DNA of 64,000 nt. It comes from an uncultured Gammaproteobacteria bacterium. GTDB lineage: Bacteria; Patescibacteriota; Microgenomatia; 2-02-FULL-39-11. Below, in pieces: positions 2,276 through 40,428 of the stretch; position 1 is the first letter of the stretch; every line of letters starts with the position of its first letter. The stretch spans positions 14,404-78,403 of the forward strand of contig CAYIFB010000002.1 of NCBI GenBank assembly GCA_964362665.1, read 5' to 3'. The notes under the pieces were generated by a model. The model saw only the letters and a program-made list of their open reading frames with translations, did no database searches and was not told where the DNA came from. The position numbers were made by a program, and so were the translations under genes.

Positions 2276-2824
2276 TTACTTTTTCTTTTCTTTAATATTA
2301 TTTAGAGCAACAACCACTCTCTGCAGATTCCAATTTAAAGCATAATGCAGGCCGTAAAGAGGTGATTTCATTCTCATAGCCAAGGTTGCTAAAAGGATTT
2401 CGCGGTTTGCTAGGACCGATAATTTTTTAAAATCTTCATTTGTAGCGATTCTTTCGTCAAAAAAACCGATTTTGATTTTGGGAAGCTGAAAATTTTTAAT
2501 AAATTTTGCTACCGCTTTGACAGCATTGACAGTGTCTCCATGAATCAGAAGTGCAGCTGTAGGATTATTGAGTTCTCCTTCCAGTTGAGGGAGAGATTCT
2601 TTCGGAAGCTGTTGGATGGCCAGTTTAAGCAAAGTATTTTTCGCGACAATATATTCAGCCTCAACTTTTTTCAAAGCTTTTCGCAGTTCTTCCAGCTGTT
2701 TGTGGGTAAGCCCTCTGTAATCAGTGAAAAAAAAGGCTTTGGCTGTCTTCAATTTTTCCTGAAGTGACGAGATAGCCTCAATTTTTCTTTGTCTGTTTGG
2801 TGATGTTTTTGCTACTTTATCCAT
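2276..2824 (-). CDS. rplJ: 50S ribosomal protein L10
   Basis: L10 signature FFFTDYRGLTHKQLEELRKALK. The start is trimmed to MDKVAK (ATG at 2824) rather than the 216-aa ORF start at 2926. Located upstream of rplL. Confidence 0.85.
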   Translation of the reverse strand: MDKVAKTSPNRQRKIEAISSLQEKLKTAKAFFFTDYRGLTHKQLEELRKALKKVEAEYIVAKNTLLKLAIQQLPKESLPQLEGELNNPTAALLIHGDTVNAVKAVAKFIKNFQLPKIKIGFFDERIATNEDFKKLSVLANREILLATLAMRMKSPLYGLHYALNWNLQRVVVALNNIKEKKK

Positions 2825-2986
2825 AAAAAATGCCTCGATTAACGAGGCGAAAGGATTATATCTAATCTTCTCCTCGGCAGGTCTTAATTTTGCGCCTGCT
2901 GTCTTAGGTAGAAGAAATATTAACACACTCTTTGCGTTGGGTCAAGGGTTTGGAGAAGGGAAGGATTAATGGTAGAATAAAATTCT

Positions 2987-31948: not shown

Positions 31949-32090
31949 GTTTAAGACTACGTATAGTTTGATATTCCACTTTATTCTAGATCTTTTTATA
32001 TAAAATTATAATTATTAAAAAGCTTAAAATCCTACTCTATATCCAGATAAAGTTTATACGCCATCAAAGGTGGTACCAACCTGCAGAACT

Positions 32091-32198
32091 TGCAGTGATT
32101 TATGAAAAAGTTCGAACCTATTTTCTCGCTGACTCCTAGCTCGCCCCGCCTCCGGCGGGGCTCGCATGGTCGGCGCGTCGCCCCCGCCCGACGCGCCT
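32091..32198. repeat. inverted repeat A' (108 bp, GC-rich), partner of 37732..37839
   Basis: Exact reverse-complement identity read directly from the sequence. Confidence 0.9.
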
Positions 32199-32669
32199 AA
32201 GGCATTGTCTGCGCGCGCGTTTTCTCTCTCCGCTGAGCGGATCGAGCAAGGTAGGATTATAGTAGCACAAAGCCCAGTACGTTGTGATTCCGTATCAACC
32301 CACCCACCCAAAACAAATATTGATGGCGGCGACCCCGCCTTGTGCGAGAGGGCGCCCTAGGGGGCGCCTCGCCAATGTTCAGGTAATTTATTTTCTCTTT
32401 CAGTCTCTACCGAAGTTAGTTTTGATTTAGCATGTCCTGCAGTCGGCGAGATATCCGCTTTTCGCCCCCGCCGCTCATATCGTATCCCTGTCCAGCGTTC
32501 GGTTGGCTTGCGCGCCCGCTTATGGGTACGCGCTTCGCGCGAAGATAATTATTTTAGCGCCCGGCGCGCCACGTTCGGATCGTGGATAGAGCGCGCGTAT
32601 GAACGCGCGCCTTTTAGCTAGTGCTACCCGGGGAAGCGGGGGCGGCGGAGCCGCCAAAGCTATTCTGAA

Positions 32670-33314
32670 TTAGAATTTTCTTTCAAAGTTGGTAGAAAAA
32701 GAAGAAAAAAAATTTCTGTAGATATCAGAGTTCGTCTTTGCGTGCCATAATTGTGTTAGATACTTGTGGATTCCGTTTTCAAAGCAGACTAAAAGCATAC
32801 GAGTATCAACAAGCAGTCTTTTTTTCTTTCTTTCCCATTTTAGCAAGTTTGGTAACGGTTCTATCAGGACACTATGACGTAAGAGAAATTTATGTACGAG
32901 TTGATTTCTGATTCCAAAGTAAAAAATTTCTGAATACTTAACTTTCTGTTTTTTGTAAAACCATTTCTCTCGACTTCCAATCTGTGCTGGATGGTATGGC
33001 TGTTTTATTTCTTTTTTAAATTGCTTGCTTAGATAATCTTCGAGAAATAAAGGAAAATATTTATTTGGTTCGTCTTTTGCATATCTAAATCTACTTAAAA
33101 ATTCGACCCCAACGGATACCATTACTGCTAATCCAAACATTGAACCCGCCTTTTCCTTAATGCGTTTTGTGTCTTCAATAAGCCATGGGAGTATTCTTCT
33201 ATTTTCAAACCAATAAAGTTTTTCGTTATCGGCTAGCTTAGAAAAGTCAATATCACTCCACGTTGAAGGAAAGAGGTCGATCATTACTTTTCTCTTTTTC
33301 GTTGGAGTTATCAT
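32670..33314 (-). CDS. hypothetical protein (island cargo, second gene of operon)
   Basis: 214 aa. Lies 9 nt downstream of the 343-aa gene on the same strand. Confidence 0.35.
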   Translation of the reverse strand: MITPTKKRKVMIDLFPSTWSDIDFSKLADNEKLYWFENRRILPWLIEDTKRIKEKAGSMFGLAVMVSVGVEFLSRFRYAKDEPNKYFPLFLEDYLSKQFKKEIKQPYHPAQIGSREKWFYKKQKVKYSEIFYFGIRNQLVHKFLLRHSVLIEPLPNLLKWERKKKRLLVDTRMLLVCFENGIHKYLTQLWHAKTNSDIYRNFFSSFSTNFERKF

Positions 33315-33322
33315 GGCTGTAA

Positions 33323-34354
33323 TTACTTATTAGAATTTCCGCTCACAAGTTGCAGTGGCGCTATAGTGAAAGAGGGGAATTCTTCGTCCTGTGGAAGTTC
33401 TGTTCCTGTAATGATTTTTCCAATTGCACGTCTAACATTTTGTGTATTTTGGTGGATAGCGGAATAAATTTTAAGACGGTCTTCCCAATCTCTTTTATGG
33501 CTATTTACTTCCTTAATAAGTAGATTATATGCCGCTCTAACCTTTTCCAAATTATCAACCATGTTTTTCTTGAATTCTCCAGTTTGCATATATCTCAAAA
33601 TTTCTCGTCCTTTTTGGTCTGTCTGTTCCTTGGTTAGCTTCATTCGATGGATATCAATAAGTATATTTCTTAATAGAAAAGCTAGATCCAGTAAGCCTAG
33701 TGGGTCAATGACAATAACTTCATCGTCAATAAAAAATTTAGATTTATTTTCTTTCTGTGCATGCGTTACAATAACGGCATAGTCTGCGCGTGCGACATCC
33801 TGATGACCCTTTATTTCTTTAACGAACCCATTATTATATTTTTCTGTTCTTTTGCATTCATATAAAACGCTTCCAACGTTTTCGTCGTTGAATACAACAA
33901 ATTGAATGACATCGCCCATTTTTCCAGTCGATTGGATTTTATCCGTGGGGAAAGCATCGGATAGCATTTTTTGGACCTCCTTTTCATATTCAAAGCCTGC
34001 TGTTTGAGGAGTTTTTCCTTCCTTAAGTTGTTTTTCTAGTTCTTGAATTTTTTTATTATTAGCTTGCAGTGCCTTAGTCTGATTTTGAAGCATTTTTGTC
34101 ATCCTCATCCGTTCGCTTTGTTCCTTTTTAATTCCTTTGGCTACACCCGACTCTTCTGCCAGTTTTGTCGCTTTTTTTACATCTTCTTGATATTTCTTCT
34201 TTAATTCCTCCTCCTGTTTTTTGTATTTATCAATCGCCTTTTTGGCCTCTATGATAATTTTTTGCCTTTCTTCCCATTGTCCTGTTATCCTTATCCAAGT
34301 TTCTCTTGTTAAGATGCTTTCGCATAGCGGGCATTTATAGGTTTGATTATCCAT
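33323..34354 (-). CDS. zinc-finger / coiled-coil protein with C-terminal PD-(D/E)xK-like nuclease motif
   Basis: N-terminal CPLC...C zinc knuckle, ~120 aa of Lys/Glu-rich coiled coil, then GDVIQFVVF...LYECK resembling the D...ExK nuclease core. Confidence 0.4.
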   Translation of the reverse strand: MDNQTYKCPLCESILTRETWIRITGQWEERQKIIIEAKKAIDKYKKQEEELKKKYQEDVKKATKLAEESGVAKGIKKEQSERMRMTKMLQNQTKALQANNKKIQELEKQLKEGKTPQTAGFEYEKEVQKMLSDAFPTDKIQSTGKMGDVIQFVVFNDENVGSVLYECKRTEKYNNGFVKEIKGHQDVARADYAVIVTHAQKENKSKFFIDDEVIVIDPLGLLDLAFLLRNILIDIHRMKLTKEQTDQKGREILRYMQTGEFKKNMVDNLEKVRAAYNLLIKEVNSHKRDWEDRLKIYSAIHQNTQNVRRAIGKIITGTELPQDEEFPSFTIAPLQLVSGNSNK

Positions 34355-34416
34355 ATATTTTTACTTCTTGACAATAGTCATAGAAAAGTAATAAATTAAT
34401 AATAGACCAACTGCCT

Positions 34417-35019
34417 ATGAAAGTCAATGCCGCCATGACCATAACACCGAAGCAGAAGCAGGTATTGGATTTCATCAAGAGCTTCGTCAAAAATAACGGC
34501 TATTCGCCGTCGCTCCATGAGATCGCGGGACATTTCCGAAAATCCGTCAGCACCGCTCAGCATTTCGTCGAGGAGCTGGACAATAGGGGATTTCTTCAAA
34601 AAACAGACAATGTAGCCCGTGGAATCAGCACGGCAATCCAGCAATTTGGCCGCATCTTCAAGCTCGGCGTCATCGCCGCAGGCAATCCGATAGAACCGAT
34701 TGAGAATCCGGAACCGATCGATGTGCCTTTATCTATGATAAGCAGAAAAGGAGATTACTATGCGCTTGAAGTAAGGGGGACCAGCATGATGGACGATAAT
34801 ATTCTTGACGGGGATATTATTGTTGTCCGACACCAGAAAATTGTAGAGGATGGCGATCGAGTAGTTGCGGTTACGGAAAAAGGCGCCACTCTAAAAGTTT
34901 ATCGGAATAGAAATGGTAAAGTATATCTTGAGCCTCGAAATAAGTCCTTAAGCAATATTTATCCAAAAGAGCTTGAGATTCGCGGCAAGTTTTGTGGTTT
35001 AATAAGAAAAGGAGACTAA
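34417..35019 (+). CDS. LexA-like S24 autopeptidase repressor
   Basis: N-terminal winged HTH (SPSLHEIAGHF). C-terminal ALEVRGTSMMDDNILDGDIIVV matches the S24 Ser-Lys peptidase motif GxSM...GD. Confidence 0.75.
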   Translation: MKVNAAMTITPKQKQVLDFIKSFVKNNGYSPSLHEIAGHFRKSVSTAQHFVEELDNRGFLQKTDNVARGISTAIQQFGRIFKLGVIAAGNPIEPIENPEPIDVPLSMISRKGDYYALEVRGTSMMDDNILDGDIIVVRHQKIVEDGDRVVAVTEKGATLKVYRNRNGKVYLEPRNKSLSNIYPKELEIRGKFCGLIRKGD

Positions 35020-35044
35020 ATGAATCTGCCCATCAATAAAATCA

Positions 35045-35452
35045 ATGACAGATGTATTTACAAAGAAAAAGCGGAGCCTGATAATGTCGCGGATAAGTGG
35101 AAAGCATACATTGCCGGAATTAAGAGTTAGAAAAGCACTTTACAGTATAGGTATAAGATACAGATTGCACAATAAGAAGCTTTCTGGGCATCCGGATATT
35201 GTTATTAGGAGAAAGAAAGCGGCTTTATTCGTTAATGGTTGTTTTTGGCATCAGCATAAGAATTGCAAGAGAAGTACTATACCGAAAACGAATAAAAAGT
35301 ATTGGCTGCCGAAATTAAAAAGGAATATTGAAAAGCAAGTAGAGGATTTTAGGAAATTAAGAAAAGAAGGGTGGAAGACGACAGTCGTTTGGGAATGTCA
35401 AACAAAAAATCAGATTAAGCTCGAATCAAGATTAAGAAGAATATTTGTATGA
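35045..35452 (+). CDS. vsr: very-short-patch-repair endonuclease
   Basis: KRSLIMSRI...PDIV...FVNGCFWHQH aligns with Vsr (TRSKNMRAI...PDFV...FTHGCFWHHH). Overlaps the start of the downstream m5C methyltransferase. Confidence 0.8.
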   Translation: MTDVFTKKKRSLIMSRISGKHTLPELRVRKALYSIGIRYRLHNKKLSGHPDIVIRRKKAALFVNGCFWHQHKNCKRSTIPKTNKKYWLPKLKRNIEKQVEDFRKLRKEGWKTTVVWECQTKNQIKLESRLRRIFV

Positions 35453-36555
35453 AGAAAAAAGTTTTCAGAATTGCAGAATTATTTTCAGGTCCCGGCGGCT
35501 TGGCTTTTGGTGCCGTCAATACGCACGTATCTACTTCTGATTTGGAATATACGCTTGAATCAGTTTGGTCAAATGACATTGACGCGGATGCCTGCAGAAC
35601 CTATGCCCGAAATATTCATGGCGGCGATCAATCGAAAACAATCTGCAAACCTGTTCAGGAGCTTGATTTCGAAAAGCTTCCTGCATTCGATGCTTTAGCT
35701 TTCGGATTTCCATGCAATGACTTCAGCGTTGTGGGAGAACAGAAGGGGTTCAATGGAAAATATGGACCTCTTTATTCCTACGGAGTAAAAGCAATCAACG
35801 CACATAACCCAATGCTGTTTATTGCAGAAAATGTCAGCGGACTGCAGAGCGCGAACAAAGGAGATGCGTTTGCAAAGATTTTGAGCGATTTAGAGCACGC
35901 GGGCAAGGGATATCGCTTAACAACTCATCTTTATAAATTCGAAGACTACGGTGTACCGCAATATAGACACAGGGTAGTTATTATCGGAATTCGGAGTGAT
36001 CTGAATCTAAAGTTCAACGTGCCTGCTCCTACAACTTTGCAGAAATATGTTACCGCGCGGGATGCTCTTGAAAAACCGCCTATTTCTGCAGATGCGCCAA
36101 ACAACGAATTGACGCGGCAGTCTGAGGTTGTGATTGAAAGATTGAAATACATACCGCCTGGGAAGAATGCTTGGTATGAAGGCATTCCTGAACACCTGCG
36201 GCTGAACGTAAAAAAAGCACGCATGAGTCAGATATACAAGCGTCTTGATCCTAATAAGCCCGCATACACAATTACTGGTTCAGGCGGCGGCGGCACCCAT
36301 GTCTATCATTGGAAGGAAAATAGAGCGCTGACTAATAGGGAGCGTGCGCGCCTGCAATCCTTTCCTGATAAGTTTGTTTTTGAAGGATCAAAAGAGAGCG
36401 TGCGCAAACAGATCGGCATGGCTGTTCCTCCAAAAGGAGCAAGTGCAGTAATTTCGGCTGTATTGAAAACTTTCGCCGGGTTATCTTATCCATCTGTTCC
36501 GGCAAAACTTACGAACGGGTTTCCTCCGCTCAACGGAATGCTGTTTGATTTTTAG
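35449..36555 (+). CDS. DNA (cytosine-5)-methyltransferase
   Basis: Motif I FSGPGG, motif IV PCNDFS, motif VI ENV, and a C-terminal QIGMAVPP-type motif. Confidence 0.85.
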   Translation: MKKKVFRIAELFSGPGGLAFGAVNTHVSTSDLEYTLESVWSNDIDADACRTYARNIHGGDQSKTICKPVQELDFEKLPAFDALAFGFPCNDFSVVGEQKGFNGKYGPLYSYGVKAINAHNPMLFIAENVSGLQSANKGDAFAKILSDLEHAGKGYRLTTHLYKFEDYGVPQYRHRVVIIGIRSDLNLKFNVPAPTTLQKYVTARDALEKPPISADAPNNELTRQSEVVIERLKYIPPGKNAWYEGIPEHLRLNVKKARMSQIYKRLDPNKPAYTITGSGGGGTHVYHWKENRALTNRERARLQSFPDKFVFEGSKESVRKQIGMAVPPKGASAVISAVLKTFAGLSYPSVPAKLTNGFPPLNGMLFDF

Positions 36556-37391
36556 AGGATGCTGATAAGCTTCTCCCAATCTTTCCTATTTTTCTTCAGG
36601 AGACCGGATTTTTTTACAAACCTTTTTCCGTCGAATTCCTGACCCTCAATGCTCGTTACTTCTTCCAGATCATCGGCCCAACACCATCCGGATACCTCGC
36701 AGGGAATTTCGGAAAAGTCCGGAATAACGGCGCTGTATTTGCTGAAGTGAGGCATATTTTTCACAACTGACACGATTTCCTGTTTTGCAATTCTCAACAG
36801 ATGGTCGTCAGGAATTTCCGGTCTGCAGTAAATATATATGTCCGAACGCCGAGCTGGGATATTTATTTCATTTTCACCCAAAATCAAATACGCGCTTTTT
36901 GGCTTCGATGATTTTATTCCGACGCCTTTGCGTGGCTTCTGCATTTTACCGTTTCGTACAATACCGATAATGTCCTGCGGCACGATCTCTCCGTAGATAT
37001 TAAAATCAAGTTCGACTTCTGTATTGAATTCCTTTTTGAAGAATTTTTTGACGGCTACTTCGCCAAGCTGTCCTTTAACCCAATTGGTGATTTTTTGACC
37101 GAATTCGCGTTGTCTCGCGGTACCCCAATCAGAAAGCACATATCCGCGGAAATGCTGAGCAAGAGCAAAGTCGAGACATAAGGCATAATCAGCCTTTGTT
37201 AAACTGATGGTCCGCCACGCATAGCTCTTTTTCCATTCTGCAAGGGTTTCCTCCGAAAACATGAATCTGCCGTGGGAGCCGTTTCTTTCCATGCATTTGA
37301 ACTCCTCGGCGTTTTTGAAGTAGTTGTCGAAAGCCTTCGGATCAAGGCCGGTATAGGCGATTGCGTCTTTTTTGCTTAGTATCTTGCCCAT
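36552..37391 (-). CDS. putative type II restriction endonuclease
   Basis: Convergent with and overlapping the methyltransferase. Immediately downstream of a C-protein gene. No recognised family. Confidence 0.45.
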   Translation of the reverse strand: MGKILSKKDAIAYTGLDPKAFDNYFKNAEEFKCMERNGSHGRFMFSEETLAEWKKSYAWRTISLTKADYALCLDFALAQHFRGYVLSDWGTARQREFGQKITNWVKGQLGEVAVKKFFKKEFNTEVELDFNIYGEIVPQDIIGIVRNGKMQKPRKGVGIKSSKPKSAYLILGENEINIPARRSDIYIYCRPEIPDDHLLRIAKQEIVSVVKNMPHFSKYSAVIPDFSEIPCEVSGWCWADDLEEVTSIEGQEFDGKRFVKKSGLLKKNRKDWEKLISIL

Positions 37392-37392
37392 A

Positions 37393-37614
37393 TTATTTGA
37401 TAAAGTATTCGATATTCTTTCTGTAGATTTCTGCGATTTGTTTCAGTTGGACAAGATCGATTCTTCGTTGTCCAGATTCCATTTTTGAAATATATGACTG
37501 CGACTTATTCAGCAGTTTTGCCGCAGTTTTCTGATCGAGCTTGGCAGAGAGCCGGGCAGATTTCAGCTTTTCGATAAGATTTTTATGCTCTTTTGTATAG
37601 ATGTCTTTTGACAT
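37393..37614 (-). CDS. XRE-family HTH controller (C) protein
   Basis: 73 aa. QKTAAKLLNKSQSYISKMESGQRRI is an HTH_XRE motif. Its stop abuts the restriction enzyme start. Confidence 0.6.
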   Translation of the reverse strand: MSKDIYTKEHKNLIEKLKSARLSAKLDQKTAAKLLNKSQSYISKMESGQRRIDLVQLKQIAEIYRKNIEYFIK

Positions 37615-37640
37615 AAGCTGATTTGACTTATTGTATGATA

Positions 37641-37674
37641 TATTCCAAAATAGAATATGCCAAAATGGAATATA
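37641..37674. promoter_or_regulatory. candidate C-box operator: tandem 13-nt repeats CCAAAAT(A/G)GAATA
   Basis: Two direct repeats separated by 2 nt, 30-60 nt upstream of the C-protein start. Confidence 0.35.
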
Positions 37675-37731
37675 CGTACAGAAATTTCTGCGGGGTCTTT
37701 AAATTTTAAAATTTCGAGCCGATGCGTTTGC

Positions 37732-37839
37732 AGGCGCGTCGGGCGGGGGCGACGCGCCGACCATGCGAGCCCCGCCGGAGGCGGGGCGAGCTAGGAGTCA
37801 GCGAGAAAATAGGTTCGAACTTTTTCATAAATCACTGCA
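37732..37839. repeat. inverted repeat A (108 bp)
   Basis: Reverse complement of 32091..32198. Overlaps repeat B by the 5-nt CTGCA. Confidence 0.9.
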
Positions 37840-37936
37840 GAAAGAGAATTCGAGGCTCCGCCGGATGGTTGGCTCTGCGCGGGTGGGGTCGCGCAGAGTG
37901 TTTGGAAGGGCTCGCGGAAAACGGCCGAGAGCCGCC
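37835..37936. repeat. inverted repeat B (102 bp), partner of 39379..39480
   Basis: Exact reverse-complement identity. Begins with CTGCAG. Confidence 0.9.
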
Positions 37937-37982
37937 GAAGACAAAAAGAAGGAAAGACCCCGCAGAAATTTCTTTTCATTAT

Positions 37983-39503
37983 ATGAAATACATTGCGTAC
38001 TGTAGAAGATCGACTGATGAGAAAGATAGGCAAGTTCTGTCTATAGAGGCGCAAATTGCAGAAATTAAAGAATACGCAAAGCGGGAGCAGGTAGATATCG
38101 CTGAATTCATCACCGAGTCTAGAACCGCCAAGGAGCCGGGCCGTCCATTATTTGCCGATCTTATAGGTAAAATTGAACGGGGACTGGCCTCTGGCATTAT
38201 CGCATGGCATCCTGATAGACTTGCCCGTAATTCTATAGACGGCGGCCGGATTATTTACCTTATCGACATCGGCAAGCTCGGCGGGCTCAAATTTCCGACG
38301 TTTTGGTTTGAAAATACGCCGCAGGGAAAATTCATGCTCTCAATCGCCTTCGGCCAGTCCAAATATTACGTCGATAACCTCTCGGAAAATGTGAAGCGCG
38401 GCATCCGGCAGAAGCTGAGAAACGGCGTGTGGCCGCATAATGCACCGCTTGGCTATCTCAACGATCTTAAAGTGCATTCCATTCTCGTTGATCCAAAGAC
38501 CGCGCCGCTCGTGCAGAAATCATTTAAACGATTTGCGTCGCGCACTGTTTCATTTACTGATATTGCGCGCATGTTTGCTGATAGCGGAATTCGTAGGAAA
38601 AGCGGCCGCATTATTCATATCAACACAGTGCGCAACATGCTCGCCAACAGATTTTATATCGGGCAAATGATTCATCTTGGCGAATATTACGATGGTACGC
38701 ATGAACAGATTATTGATCGAAATTTATTTTATAAGGTACAGACGGAGCTAATGCGTATTGAGCGTCCGCATTTCAAGGGACATCATTTTCCGTTTGTGGG
38801 ACTTGCGCGGTGCGGAGAGTGCGGCGGGGCAATTACCGGAGAAATCCATACAAAATATTATCGCACCACCCGAGGAAAAGTTACATACACATATTACCGA
38901 TGTACGAAGAAATTTGGTCCGTGTTTTAGTAGGTATCTTACCGATTCCGAATTTGAGAAACAGATTCGAGTATTGGTTGCTTCGGTTGGATTGCCGCAGG
39001 AGTGGGAGAGTGAGTGGCGGCAGAAATTTACTATGGATTCGGAATCGGAAAAGATTGGGGCAGAGAAACGGCGGCAAGTTTTGGAATTAAAATTAGCGGA
39101 TATAAATGGAAAGCTCGATCTGTTGCTCGATGGACTTCTTGATCAGACGATTGATCAGGGTGCATATCGGAAAAAGAAAAATACGCTTTCAGAAAATAAG
39201 CGTCAAACGGATGAAGAAAAGAAAGATATTTTGTCGGGGAAAAATAAACGGCTCGAACTCATGAAGGAATTTATAGACAGCGCCTTTCAGGCGCATAAAA
39301 TCGCGCGCGCAGACAATGCCTGCGAAGATTTGGCAATCTTCGCCAAACGCATCGGCTCGAACTTCTTTTTGAAAGACCGGCGGCTCTCGGCCGTTTTCCG
39401 CGAGCCCTTCCAAACACTCTGCGCGACCCCACCCGCGCAGAGCCAACCATCCGGCGGAGCCTCGAATTCTCTTTCTGCAGGTCCGCAGCGATTCGAACGC
39501 TGA
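37983..39503 (+). CDS. large serine recombinase (resolvase/invertase-type catalytic domain + recombinase domain + zinc ribbon + coiled coil)
   Basis: MKYIAYCRRSTDEKDRQVLSIEAQ contains the catalytic Ser. The resolvase core is followed by a recombinase domain, a CGECGG...C zinc ribbon and a coiled coil. The upstream extension of the ORF (from 37722) lies inside repeats A/B and was rejected. Confidence 0.85.
   Translation: MKYIAYCRRSTDEKDRQVLSIEAQIAEIKEYAKREQVDIAEFITESRTAKEPGRPLFADLIGKIERGLASGIIAWHPDRLARNSIDGGRIIYLIDIGKLGGLKFPTFWFENTPQGKFMLSIAFGQSKYYVDNLSENVKRGIRQKLRNGVWPHNAPLGYLNDLKVHSILVDPKTAPLVQKSFKRFASRTVSFTDIARMFADSGIRRKSGRIIHINTVRNMLANRFYIGQMIHLGEYYDGTHEQIIDRNLFYKVQTELMRIERPHFKGHHFPFVGLARCGECGGAITGEIHTKYYRTTRGKVTYTYYRCTKKFGPCFSRYLTDSEFEKQIRVLVASVGLPQEWESEWRQKFTMDSESEKIGAEKRRQVLELKLADINGKLDLLLDGLLDQTIDQGAYRKKKNTLSENKRQTDEEKKDILSGKNKRLELMKEFIDSAFQAHKIARADNACEDLAIFAKRIGSNFFLKDRRLSAVFREPFQTLCATPPAQSQPSGGASNSLSAGPQRFER
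39379..39480. repeat. inverted repeat B' (102 bp)
   Basis: Reverse complement of 37835..37936. Encodes the last ~35 codons of the recombinase and ends inside the tRNA-Trp 3' end. Confidence 0.9.
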
Positions 39504-39548
39504 ATAAGGGTTTTGGAGACCCTTGTGATACCATTTCACTACGGACCT
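39478..39548 (-). tRNA. trnW: tRNA-Trp (anticodon CCA)
   Basis: Folded by hand. Acceptor AGGUCCG/CGGACCU (7 bp), U8, D-stem GUGA/UCAC, anticodon stem AGGGU/ACCCU with loop CUCCAAA, 4-nt variable loop, T-arm CAGCG-UUCGAAU-CGCUG, discriminator G. The anticodon loop is identical to E. coli tRNA-Trp. CCA is not encoded. Confidence 0.8.
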
Positions 39549-40208: not shown

Positions 40209-40382
40209 TTAGTCTAACTTATCCGATTCCTTGTGTTGTGTAGCTTTGCGGCAGCGCCGGCAATATTTATGCAATTCCAGCTTGTCTTTGACGTTCAGCT
40301 TATTTTTGGTCGTGACGTAATTCTGGCTTTTGCAGTCTTTACAAACTAAAGCGATAATGATTCTTTGTTCTTTTTTGGCCAT
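40209..40382 (-). CDS. rpmG: 50S ribosomal protein L33
   Basis: Not in the ORF track (57 aa). [30 protein letters not shown]...[18 protein letters not shown] matches the L33 pattern C..C..NY..KNK.N...LELKKYC..C.K.T.H.E. Confidence 0.8.
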
Positions 40383-40428
40383 ACTTCGATTCTCTCAGTA
40401 CAAGTACTTCGATTCCCTCAGTACAAGT
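40383..40428. repeat. 23-nt direct tandem repeat x2 in the rpmG 5' region
   Basis: acttcgattctctcagtacaagt / acttcgattccctcagtacaagt. Confidence 0.6.

Follow-up and report, generated by a model that had tools for sequence, protein, structure and literature searches.

How does a mobile element come to sit flush against the tip of a tRNA gene while holding, in its interior, a second complete copy of its own attachment site? The question is raised by an island of about 7.4 kb in a 64,000-nucleotide stretch of DNA, here called the window, from a bacterium of the Patescibacteriota lineage Microgenomatia (assembly GCA_964362665.1, contig CAYIFB010000002.1, positions 14,404 to 78,403). The element ends at 32091 and 39480, which are the exact limits of the island at the 3' tip of tRNA-Trp, and as an integrated mobile element it belongs to a large serine recombinase (LSR) family that inserts at extreme tRNA 3' ends. 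It is built of two modules with a common 5-nt core, one carrying the cargo between a pair of inverted arms, X and X', and the other carrying the recombinase between a second pair, Y' and Y. The initial annotation of this DNA had reported an integrative element at tRNA-Trp with an LSR at the tRNA-proximal end, and protein domains, the exact ends and relatives on the same backbone bear that out; the perfect inverted repeats, the internal inverted attachment site, the two-module layout and a conserved RNA were all absent from it. As to what this layout does, we favor an element whose internal site recombines with the tRNA-side junction and thereby flips its own recombinase gene, a reading to which we give a probability of roughly one half.

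The layout itself follows from two perfect inverted repeats recovered by a repeat scan. X/X' (108 nt, 100% identical) pairs 32091-32198 with 37732-37839, and Y'/Y (103 nt, 100% identical) pairs 37835-37937 with 39378-39480. The two families overlap by 5 nt, TGCAG, and the same core is present at both outer junctions, as attL at 32091-32095 and as attR at 39476-39480; the predicted crossover dinucleotide in attL is 32093-32094, corresponding to tRNA positions 73/72. Direct comparison shows that 37732-37937, when reverse-complemented, is identical over all 206 bases to 39378-39480 with 32096-32198 joined behind it, and the segment just upstream of the recombinase is thus an intact inverted copy of attP, the site formed by joining the element's ends. 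We refer to this internal copy, which lies on the minus strand, as attP' (X' arm, 37732-37839; core, 37835-37839; Y' arm, 37835-37937). From left to right the locus therefore reads host, core-X, cargo, X'-core-Y', recombinase, Y-core, tRNA. The left arm X (plus strand) contains a P-type half-site (AAAAAGTTCGAAC), an alternative recombinase tail VIYEKVRTYFLADS-stop and two GC hairpins, while the right arm Y (plus strand) holds the last 34 recombinase codons before the core. The same match between internal site and joined ends is found in four relatives (L001, L015, L027 and L086). Since the internal junction is an inverted copy of the joined ends, an excised circle would hold two inverted attP sites, and integration has used the one downstream of the recombinase gene. 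We found no account of such a retained-attP, two-module layout in the literature searched, the coverage of which was incomplete, and an earlier description may exist.

Perfect repeats in a metagenome-type assembly invite the suspicion of an artefact, in which a mixture of integrated and circular forms, or a chimera, has imposed inverted repeats on a plain tRNA island. Many related contigs do end inside the arms. The relatives nonetheless argue strongly against this. We surveyed 80 further loci from species-representative genomes, each scanned for inverted repeats and tRNAs, giving 83 non-redundant loci in all. A Y pair is present in 74 of the 83, with a median length of 102 nt, and most of the loci without one appear to be truncated contigs; an X pair falls within the fetched flank in 30 (median 106 nt), enclosing cargo of 583 to 8472 nt. 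X-type sequence always adjoins Y' upstream of the recombinase, even where the distal X is out of reach. Dozens of independent assemblies, the products of different assemblers, show the layout, as do complete genomes, some with imperfect arms. Many arm pairs differ at a few positions, unlike a collapsed or duplicated repeat: the Y arms are at least 99% identical in 33 loci and less than 85% identical in 10, and 23 contigs carry a relative at 59% identity that shares the layout, its arms being 93-96% identical. In the closest relative, L001 (91% protein identity; an NCBI assembly of independent origin), both perfect repeats recur, again at tRNA-Trp; its arms are 100% identical to each other, and its Y arms are 87% identical to those in the window. 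Arms thus co-vary between elements while staying matched within each. The complete genomes and the many imperfect arm pairs exclude an assembly artefact, which we regard as extremely improbable. As a separate observation, the many contigs that begin or end inside arms (L014, L013, L024, L031, L040, L075 and others) suggest that these elements are a frequent cause of assembly breaks beside tRNA genes, or at least seem to be.

The enzyme at the center of this layout is an LSR by domain content. Its gene, on the plus strand at 37983-39503, encodes 506 aa with the Pfam domains Resolvase, Recombinase and Zn_ribbon_recom: the catalytic domain (PF00239, E 7e-19), with the serine nucleophile motif YCRRS conserved across homologues, is followed toward the C-terminus by PF07508 (E 4e-15) and PF13408 (E 5e-7). 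The full open reading frame (ORF) spans 37722-39503 (593 aa). Because homologues all begin MKYIAYCR, the true start is the ATG at 37983 (MKYIAYCRRS), and the 87 codons ahead of it are read-through of the repeat. The only relatives in the PDB, the A118 integrase (E 5e-5) and a conjugative-transposon recombinase, are distant, with E values of about 1e-5. NCBIfam returns weak matches to Ccr and XisF, at scores far under the Ccr family cutoffs, and a 506-aa LSR without a C-terminal helix-turn-helix (HTH) does not belong with the small invertases of the Hin/Gin type. Its stop codon falls within the antisense tRNA: as the initial annotation had noted, and as translation confirms, the last 8 codons of the integrated form, GPQRFER-stop, run antisense to the tRNA acceptor and T arm. 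Across the joined ends, the predicted tail would instead read ...SLSA-VIYEKVRTYFLADS-stop.

The recombinase family is very large, with more than 7,900 database relatives, mostly in Patescibacteria; only two truncated relatives turned up in viral contigs, and the family is not evidently carried by phages. In almost all members of the family the recombinase ends in a translated T-arm of an antisense tRNA, with G-x-E-P motifs; the DNA site largely accounts for the conservation of this tail. An annotated tRNA lies antisense at the recombinase 3' end in 64 loci, representing 13 tRNA types, and most of the others have tRNA-like ends. Within clusters of recombinases at least 90% identical (P0072, P0081 and P0025), up to eight different tRNA-derived tails occur per recombinase, which argues that the enzyme targets tRNA 3' ends generically.

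In the window the target is tRNA-Trp(cca), 39477-39548 on the minus strand, the only tRNA placed there by ARAGORN and Rfam (62.9 bits), and it is intact. When cores are numbered by their distance from the T-loop, tRNA positions 72-73 are common to 27 of 27 usable loci, where the sequence shared by the junctions ranges from 3 to 13 nt; in the window these positions are A39479 and C39478 and read CA. The LSR would accordingly cross over at positions 72/73, and with a crossover there the tRNA is never split and the element supplies just its 3' trailer. The initial annotation had read the locus as the classic footprint of an element that reconstitutes a tRNA 3' end, and here its account is not supported. 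TGCAG is the sole sequence common to both junctions; there is no flanking direct repeat of a tRNA 3' segment to restore a split gene. Its limits for the island shift to 32091 and 39480, though the placement at tRNA-Trp stands. To the left of 32091 we found neither a degenerate tRNA copy nor an older element. A search of metagenome contigs with the exact 30-nt predicted attB returned no match, and a full tRNA-Trp query found a single contig (L094), from another organism, with a sequence-identical, unoccupied tRNA-Trp. The empty site in a sister genome that the initial annotation had proposed looking for was thus not recovered. Identity between this contig and the window is lost precisely where the core begins on its left side, at 39476, which again indicates that tRNA-Trp was neither split nor reconstituted and that its trailer comes from the element.

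A 10-nt inverted match reported earlier between the two ends does exist, at the corrected positions 32079-32088 and 39473-39482. Lying just outside the left end, it equals the right junction, where the tRNA tip meets the first 3 nt of Y', and forms a small hairpin with the core (32081-32095). It may be chance, given that 6 of its 10 bases are the palindrome CTGCAG, or it may reflect partial dyad symmetry of the target. A crossover at the palindromic GC within CTGCAG, permitting either orientation, was considered and rejected: the cores of other family members lack a palindromic dinucleotide, and positions 72-73 in the window are CA.

Half-site logos anchored at the tRNA 72-73 center suggest how the sites are built. 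The tRNA-side logo reads GGA.TCGAACC, with TCGAAC at positions 15-20, and the arm X logo reads AAAAAA.TCGAAC, where the same motif, at positions 19-24, is displaced by +3 to +5 from its place in the tRNA T-arm. Y' begins N-CCA and continues with a weak GGAATTYGC motif, and host DNA downstream of the tRNA shows no conservation. In A118-type integrases the attP-type half-site carries the shared motif further outward than the attB-type half-site. By this comparison, the tRNA acceptor and T arm (GGATTCGAACC) would be a strong attB-type half-site, arm X, with TCGAAC about 4 bp further out, would have attP-type geometry, and the remaining two half-sites, formed by Y' and by host DNA on the downstream side of the tRNA, would be weak.

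Both copies of attP appear to be wrapped in long-range pairings. A 21-nt segment at 37680-37700 is 100% complementary to 37953-37973, whose last base lies 10 nt upstream of the recombinase ATG, and together these two halves of a bracket (I6L and I6R) enclose the internal attP; the predicted leader fold is closed by this bracket (z -7.0). A repeat at the bracket position outperforms mismatched-locus controls in about two thirds of loci; the sequence differs in some subfamilies, and many loci have a AAATTTTTGCG-like motif. Directly after the distal X, a 24-nt segment (a', 32200-32223) is complementary to recombinase coding bases 39298-39321, a pairing that co-varies in L012. Transcription of the excised form would yield an RNA in which this pairing seals a hairpin enclosing the joined ends, with 23 of 24 pairs present in the minimum free energy fold (z -7.6). 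Taken together, the bracket and the a' pairing would place each attP copy inside its own long-range helix, one of which is split by integration. A further segment, b' (37710-37730), also present in L001, is complementary to recombinase coding bases 39344-39364 over 21 nt (95%). It is an inverted copy of the piece encoding the GSNFF motif, with another TCGAAC inside, and it adjoins X' about 120 nt from the crossover.

A candidate structured RNA, which we call gcr, borders the distal arm; it is GC-rich, conserved and about 470 nt long (32199-32665, plus strand), and a' makes up its first 24 nt. Matches from nhmmer place it in 13 distinct elements, including L019 (4941-5410), L015 (5323-5781), L001 (159-609), L023, L002, L036, L014, L026, L052, L032 and L025. 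The copy in L019 is 88% identical to that in the window, with a recombinase only 55% identical and tRNA-Pro as the target. In an alignment of 12 sequences, 94.2% of cells are paired, and the covariation score is 0.244, compared with 0.111 in shuffles (0 of 500 reach 0.244) and at most 0.08 for slid partners. U-G pairs (11 of 12 at one pair, for example) favor the plus strand, which is the recombinase strand across the joined ends. ACCCACCCACCC and GCGGGGGCGGCGGAGCCGCC are among its conserved blocks, and compensatory changes are clear in one of its hairpins. No Rfam family matches gcr at its gathering threshold, the best permissive match being radC (E 1.7, 15 bits against 40). We considered a guide-RNA role and set it aside: although CCTGCAGTCG, a block of gcr, is similar to the Trp core, it does not change in step with the tRNA targeted by each element. 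Both gcr and the distal arm can be placed in 10 cases, and in all of them the two adjoin; no inversion of the cargo is therefore seen.

The recombinase module is a different matter. Since attR keeps the tRNA half-site, it should remain attB-like, and attP' lies inverted to it at a distance of 1.44 kb, such that the inner half-sites to be exchanged would both be Y'. With identical exchanged half-sites, recombination of attP' with attR would invert 37837-39478 and regenerate both sites, making the flip reversible with no need for a directionality factor. In the present orientation the recombinase converges on the tRNA gene, with the 21-bp bracket stem sealing its leader, which would correspond to low expression. 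Flipped, the gene would lie directly downstream of the tRNA gene and co-directional with it, behind the tRNA promoter, a configuration that would be expected to give high expression; it would also lose the upstream bracket half and end with the X-encoded tail.

Arrangements of this kind occur among the relatives. In L012, two attP-type junctions enclose a second recombinase module, inverted in place. In L069, tRNA-Asn lies immediately upstream of the recombinase and co-directional with it, and the locus shares 91% nucleotide identity with L083, which has the usual orientation; the recombinase of L097 runs on into X and the cargo. Overall, X-type tails or inverted states account for about 5% of recombinase copies, and about 95% share one orientation. 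Chains of three or four inverted-repeat-bounded modules beside a single tRNA, in L061 (4386-15175) and L012 (6467-11542), fit repeated insertion at a retained target, as judged from their arrangement, and lend support to attR still acting as one.

Several points weigh against this account of self-flipping. Both flipping and excision of this particular copy are deduced from assembled sequence, and the assignment of half-sites as attP-like or attB-like draws on motif spacing alone. The inverted copies could be products of RecA acting across the 100-bp arms, or of integration via the other attP, neither of which calls for a reaction between attP' and attR, and these origins cannot be told apart from the action of the LSR itself. 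The orientation bias of about 95:5 can also be read as the mark of a rarely used internal site, promoter-like matches are no commoner than in shuffled sequence, and neither the attB nor the tRNA-Trp sequence search found an empty site in a sister genome. Finally, identity over about 100 nt of arm is beyond what conservative recombination explains, and gene conversion or another step is needed; some loci with an intact recombinase have arms just 72-85% identical. Two further models were considered and rejected. For regeneration of the arms at each move, in the manner of long terminal repeats, we found no mechanism that fits conservative serine recombination, and recombinases are intact at arms of 72-85% identity. 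As for single-strand fold-back, we reason that a duplex attP would be rebuilt by a single-stranded circle, but that its integration would leave hairpin-capped chromosome ends, unlike the observed junctions.

Some of the same observations could be accommodated if the internal inverted attP were never a recombination partner, serving instead as an operator and insulator through which the LSR represses itself, with hairpins in X' blocking read-through from the cargo and with host gene conversion keeping the arms identical. There is precedent, as the Tn3 resolvase at res and the IntS integrase of KplE1 are autoregulated via their own recombination sites. The position of attP', between a divergent cargo promoter region and the recombinase ATG, suits such a role, as do the two GC hairpins in X, the strong orientation bias and the unflipped cargo beside gcr; arm identity is also bimodal, as if conversion fails once mismatches build up. 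Against it, about 50 bp would suffice for an operator, yet a full, two-armed 206-bp copy is kept across relatives 41-91% identical, and inverted recombinase modules do exist, in place in L012 and in close relatives (L069 versus L083). We therefore hold an exclusively regulatory site to be possible, though on the whole doubtful. The favored self-flipping element does not dispense with regulation, and in it attP' is probably an operator and transcription insulator as well.

The modularity of the locus raises another alternative, in which the island is a composite of two mobile units: a recombinase cassette resembling an insertion sequence, bounded by the 103-bp Y'...Y repeat, and a non-autonomous cargo cassette bounded by the 108-bp X...X' repeat, each moving via a circle with a palindromic joint and inserting beside the other. 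Alternation of recombinase and cargo modules in the chains of L012 and L061 is what such units would produce, cargo size varies widely (583 to 8472 nt), and the 88% identity of the gcr/cargo module between the window and L019, despite divergent recombinases and different tRNAs, suggests module exchange. Yet a recombinase cassette was never found without X' upstream, the loci scanned contain neither palindromic X'-X or Y-Y' joints nor a cargo module directly beside a tRNA, and the Y' half-site is weak. This makes two independent units improbable in our estimation, and a single element with two modules, flipping its own gene, remains our preferred explanation.

The cargo module of the window holds seven genes. 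Adjoining gcr on the minus strand are a 214-aa ORF (32670-33314) without a match in domain and family scans and a 343-aa DUF2130 protein (33323-34354; PF09903, E 9e-25). A plus-strand operon-like series, lexA-vsr-dcm, begins with a LexA homologue (34417-35019) that has a winged helix and an S24 peptidase and, with 145.8 bits against the TIGR00498 equivalog cutoff of 110.95, is predicted to be a LexA repressor; it continues with a Vsr very-short-patch endonuclease (35045-35452; PF03852, E 3e-29; TIGR00632) and a type II C5-cytosine DNA methyltransferase (35449-36555; PF00145, E 2e-72; PADLOC MTase_II, E 6e-115). On the minus strand follow a putative type II restriction endonuclease of 279 aa (36552-37391), matched by PADLOC REase_II (E 3e-17) and by no Pfam or NCBIfam family, and an HTH_3 controller-like (C) protein (37393-37614; PF01381, E 7e-13; PADLOC Control_protein, E 7e-5). 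The adjacency of methyltransferase, endonuclease and HTH gene marks these as a predicted type II restriction-modification system with a controller.

Cargo differs between relatives on a common backbone: L001 and L015 also sit at tRNA-Trp, with cargo different from that of the window, L001 carrying DUF3800 and one ORF. In L015 (7056-8567) a LexA gene is followed by a D12 methylase, and in L019 (6918-8519) a single 533-aa LexA-methylase fusion lies beside a HindIII-like endonuclease and an HTH gene. With LexA adjoining or fused to a methylase in the window, L015 and L019, it is a recurrent methylase partner in these cargos, and its pairing with methylases in three different restriction-modification systems suggests, from gene order, that methylation may be controlled in response to DNA damage. 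L015 also encodes a ThsB-like TIR protein, and the cargos are small defence islands. The smallest cargos, of 583-793 nt (L037, 9188-9770; L038, 9104-9769; L086, 5938-6730), have no convincing gene; that of L086 is about 60% GC over about 500 nt and may encode a different non-coding RNA. The defence and regulatory cargo described in the initial annotation, with its C/R-Vsr/M unit, is upheld by the Pfam, NCBIfam and PADLOC matches, as is its LexA-like gene by the TIGR00498 score. Its suggestion that the combination was likely undescribed for the lineage understates the matter, given more than 7,900 recombinase relatives and the recurrence of LexA with methylases.

It had also described the island as one of higher GC, which holds for particular pieces more than for the whole. 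The GC content of the island is 0.433, compared with 0.399 +/- 0.026 in equal-sized windows outside it, a weak excess of only about 1.3 standard deviations. The steps in composition stem from the arms (0.64-0.65), the GC-rich non-coding RNA region (0.57) and the recombinase gene, while the genes at 32670-34354 are AT-rich (0.33-0.36). On the far side of tRNA-Trp, host context resumes with rpmG (L33; 40209-40382, minus strand), in agreement with the initial annotation. Just upstream of rpmG, at 40382-40427, a 23-nt unit, TACTTCGATTC[T/C]CTCAGTACAAG, occurs in two tandem copies. Elsewhere in the window, a ribosomal protein L10 leader (2817-2926, minus strand; Rfam RF00557, 49.6 bits) is ordinary host context.

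The element operates in the manner of LSR islands and transposons, and parts of its design have counterparts in known systems. The element shares its domain set (Resolvase, Recombinase and zinc ribbon) with the A118/LI, phiC31 and Bxb1 integrases, and with A118 it also shares a distant sequence match and an attP-type half-site bearing the same outer motif as the attB-type one, about 4-5 bp further from the center. Known large serine integrases possess a single attP, use it up when they integrate and need a directionality factor for reversal. The present family differs in retaining a second, inverted attP, in pairing strong with weak half-sites and in having a recombinase ORF that crosses the site. 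Tn4451 and Tn5397 (TnpX/TndX) and SCCmec (Ccr) are small cargo elements moved by an LSR via a circle, with no separate directionality factor, and the tandem accretion at a retained target that we describe resembles composite SCC islands; here, by contrast, the targets are many tRNA 3' tips, and recombinase and cargo each lie within inverted repeats of about 100 bp. We know of no retained inverted attP, pair of inverted-repeat modules, bracket helices or associated RNA in phiC31, Bxb1, A118, Tn4451 or SCCmec.

Other parallels lie further afield. As in Hin/Gin, the recombinase gene occupies a segment bounded by inverted repeats with crossover sites at its outer edges, but those are small serine invertases that depend on an enhancer and Fis in their chromosomal or phage switches, whereas here an LSR with attP/attB-type sites resides on a mobile island. 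The predicted circle, split by two identical inverted sites into segments of which one carries the recombinase, recalls the yeast 2-micron plasmid (FLP/FRT); that is a replicating plasmid with a tyrosine recombinase, where inversion serves copy-number amplification, and no replication genes are present here. In the integration-dependent immunity of mycobacteriophages, attP lies inside an ORF and integration alters the C-terminus of the protein, much as the tail here reads GPQRFER in the integrated form and would read VIYEKVRTYFLADS where the ends are joined. There the ORF encodes a repressor and the enzyme is a tyrosine recombinase, while here the ORF is the recombinase itself. The fullest version of our reading goes a step further: a natural self-flipping integrase cassette, with identical exchanged half-sites and a gene moved behind a tRNA promoter, in which the RNA of about 470 nt would be linked to the transcript of the recombinase only through the excised junction and could act as a form-specific partner (for directionality or maintenance, for example). 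We offer this combination as speculation and think it rather unlikely to hold in every part.

If the layout works as we propose, a one-way serine integrase would have been made reversible by site design alone, which would bear on recombinase-based genetic memory and genome engineering. The family is also a compact set of integrases with generic recognition of a tRNA feature and hence with many natural landing sites. The gcr RNA adds a new large structured RNA candidate whose function is open to testing, and the arms offer an explanation for the frequent assembly breaks beside tRNA genes in these genomes. Mobile elements of candidate-phyla bacteria are poorly known, and this family represents a major, as yet unnamed vehicle for their defence genes, from restriction-modification systems to Thoeris-like TIR proteins.

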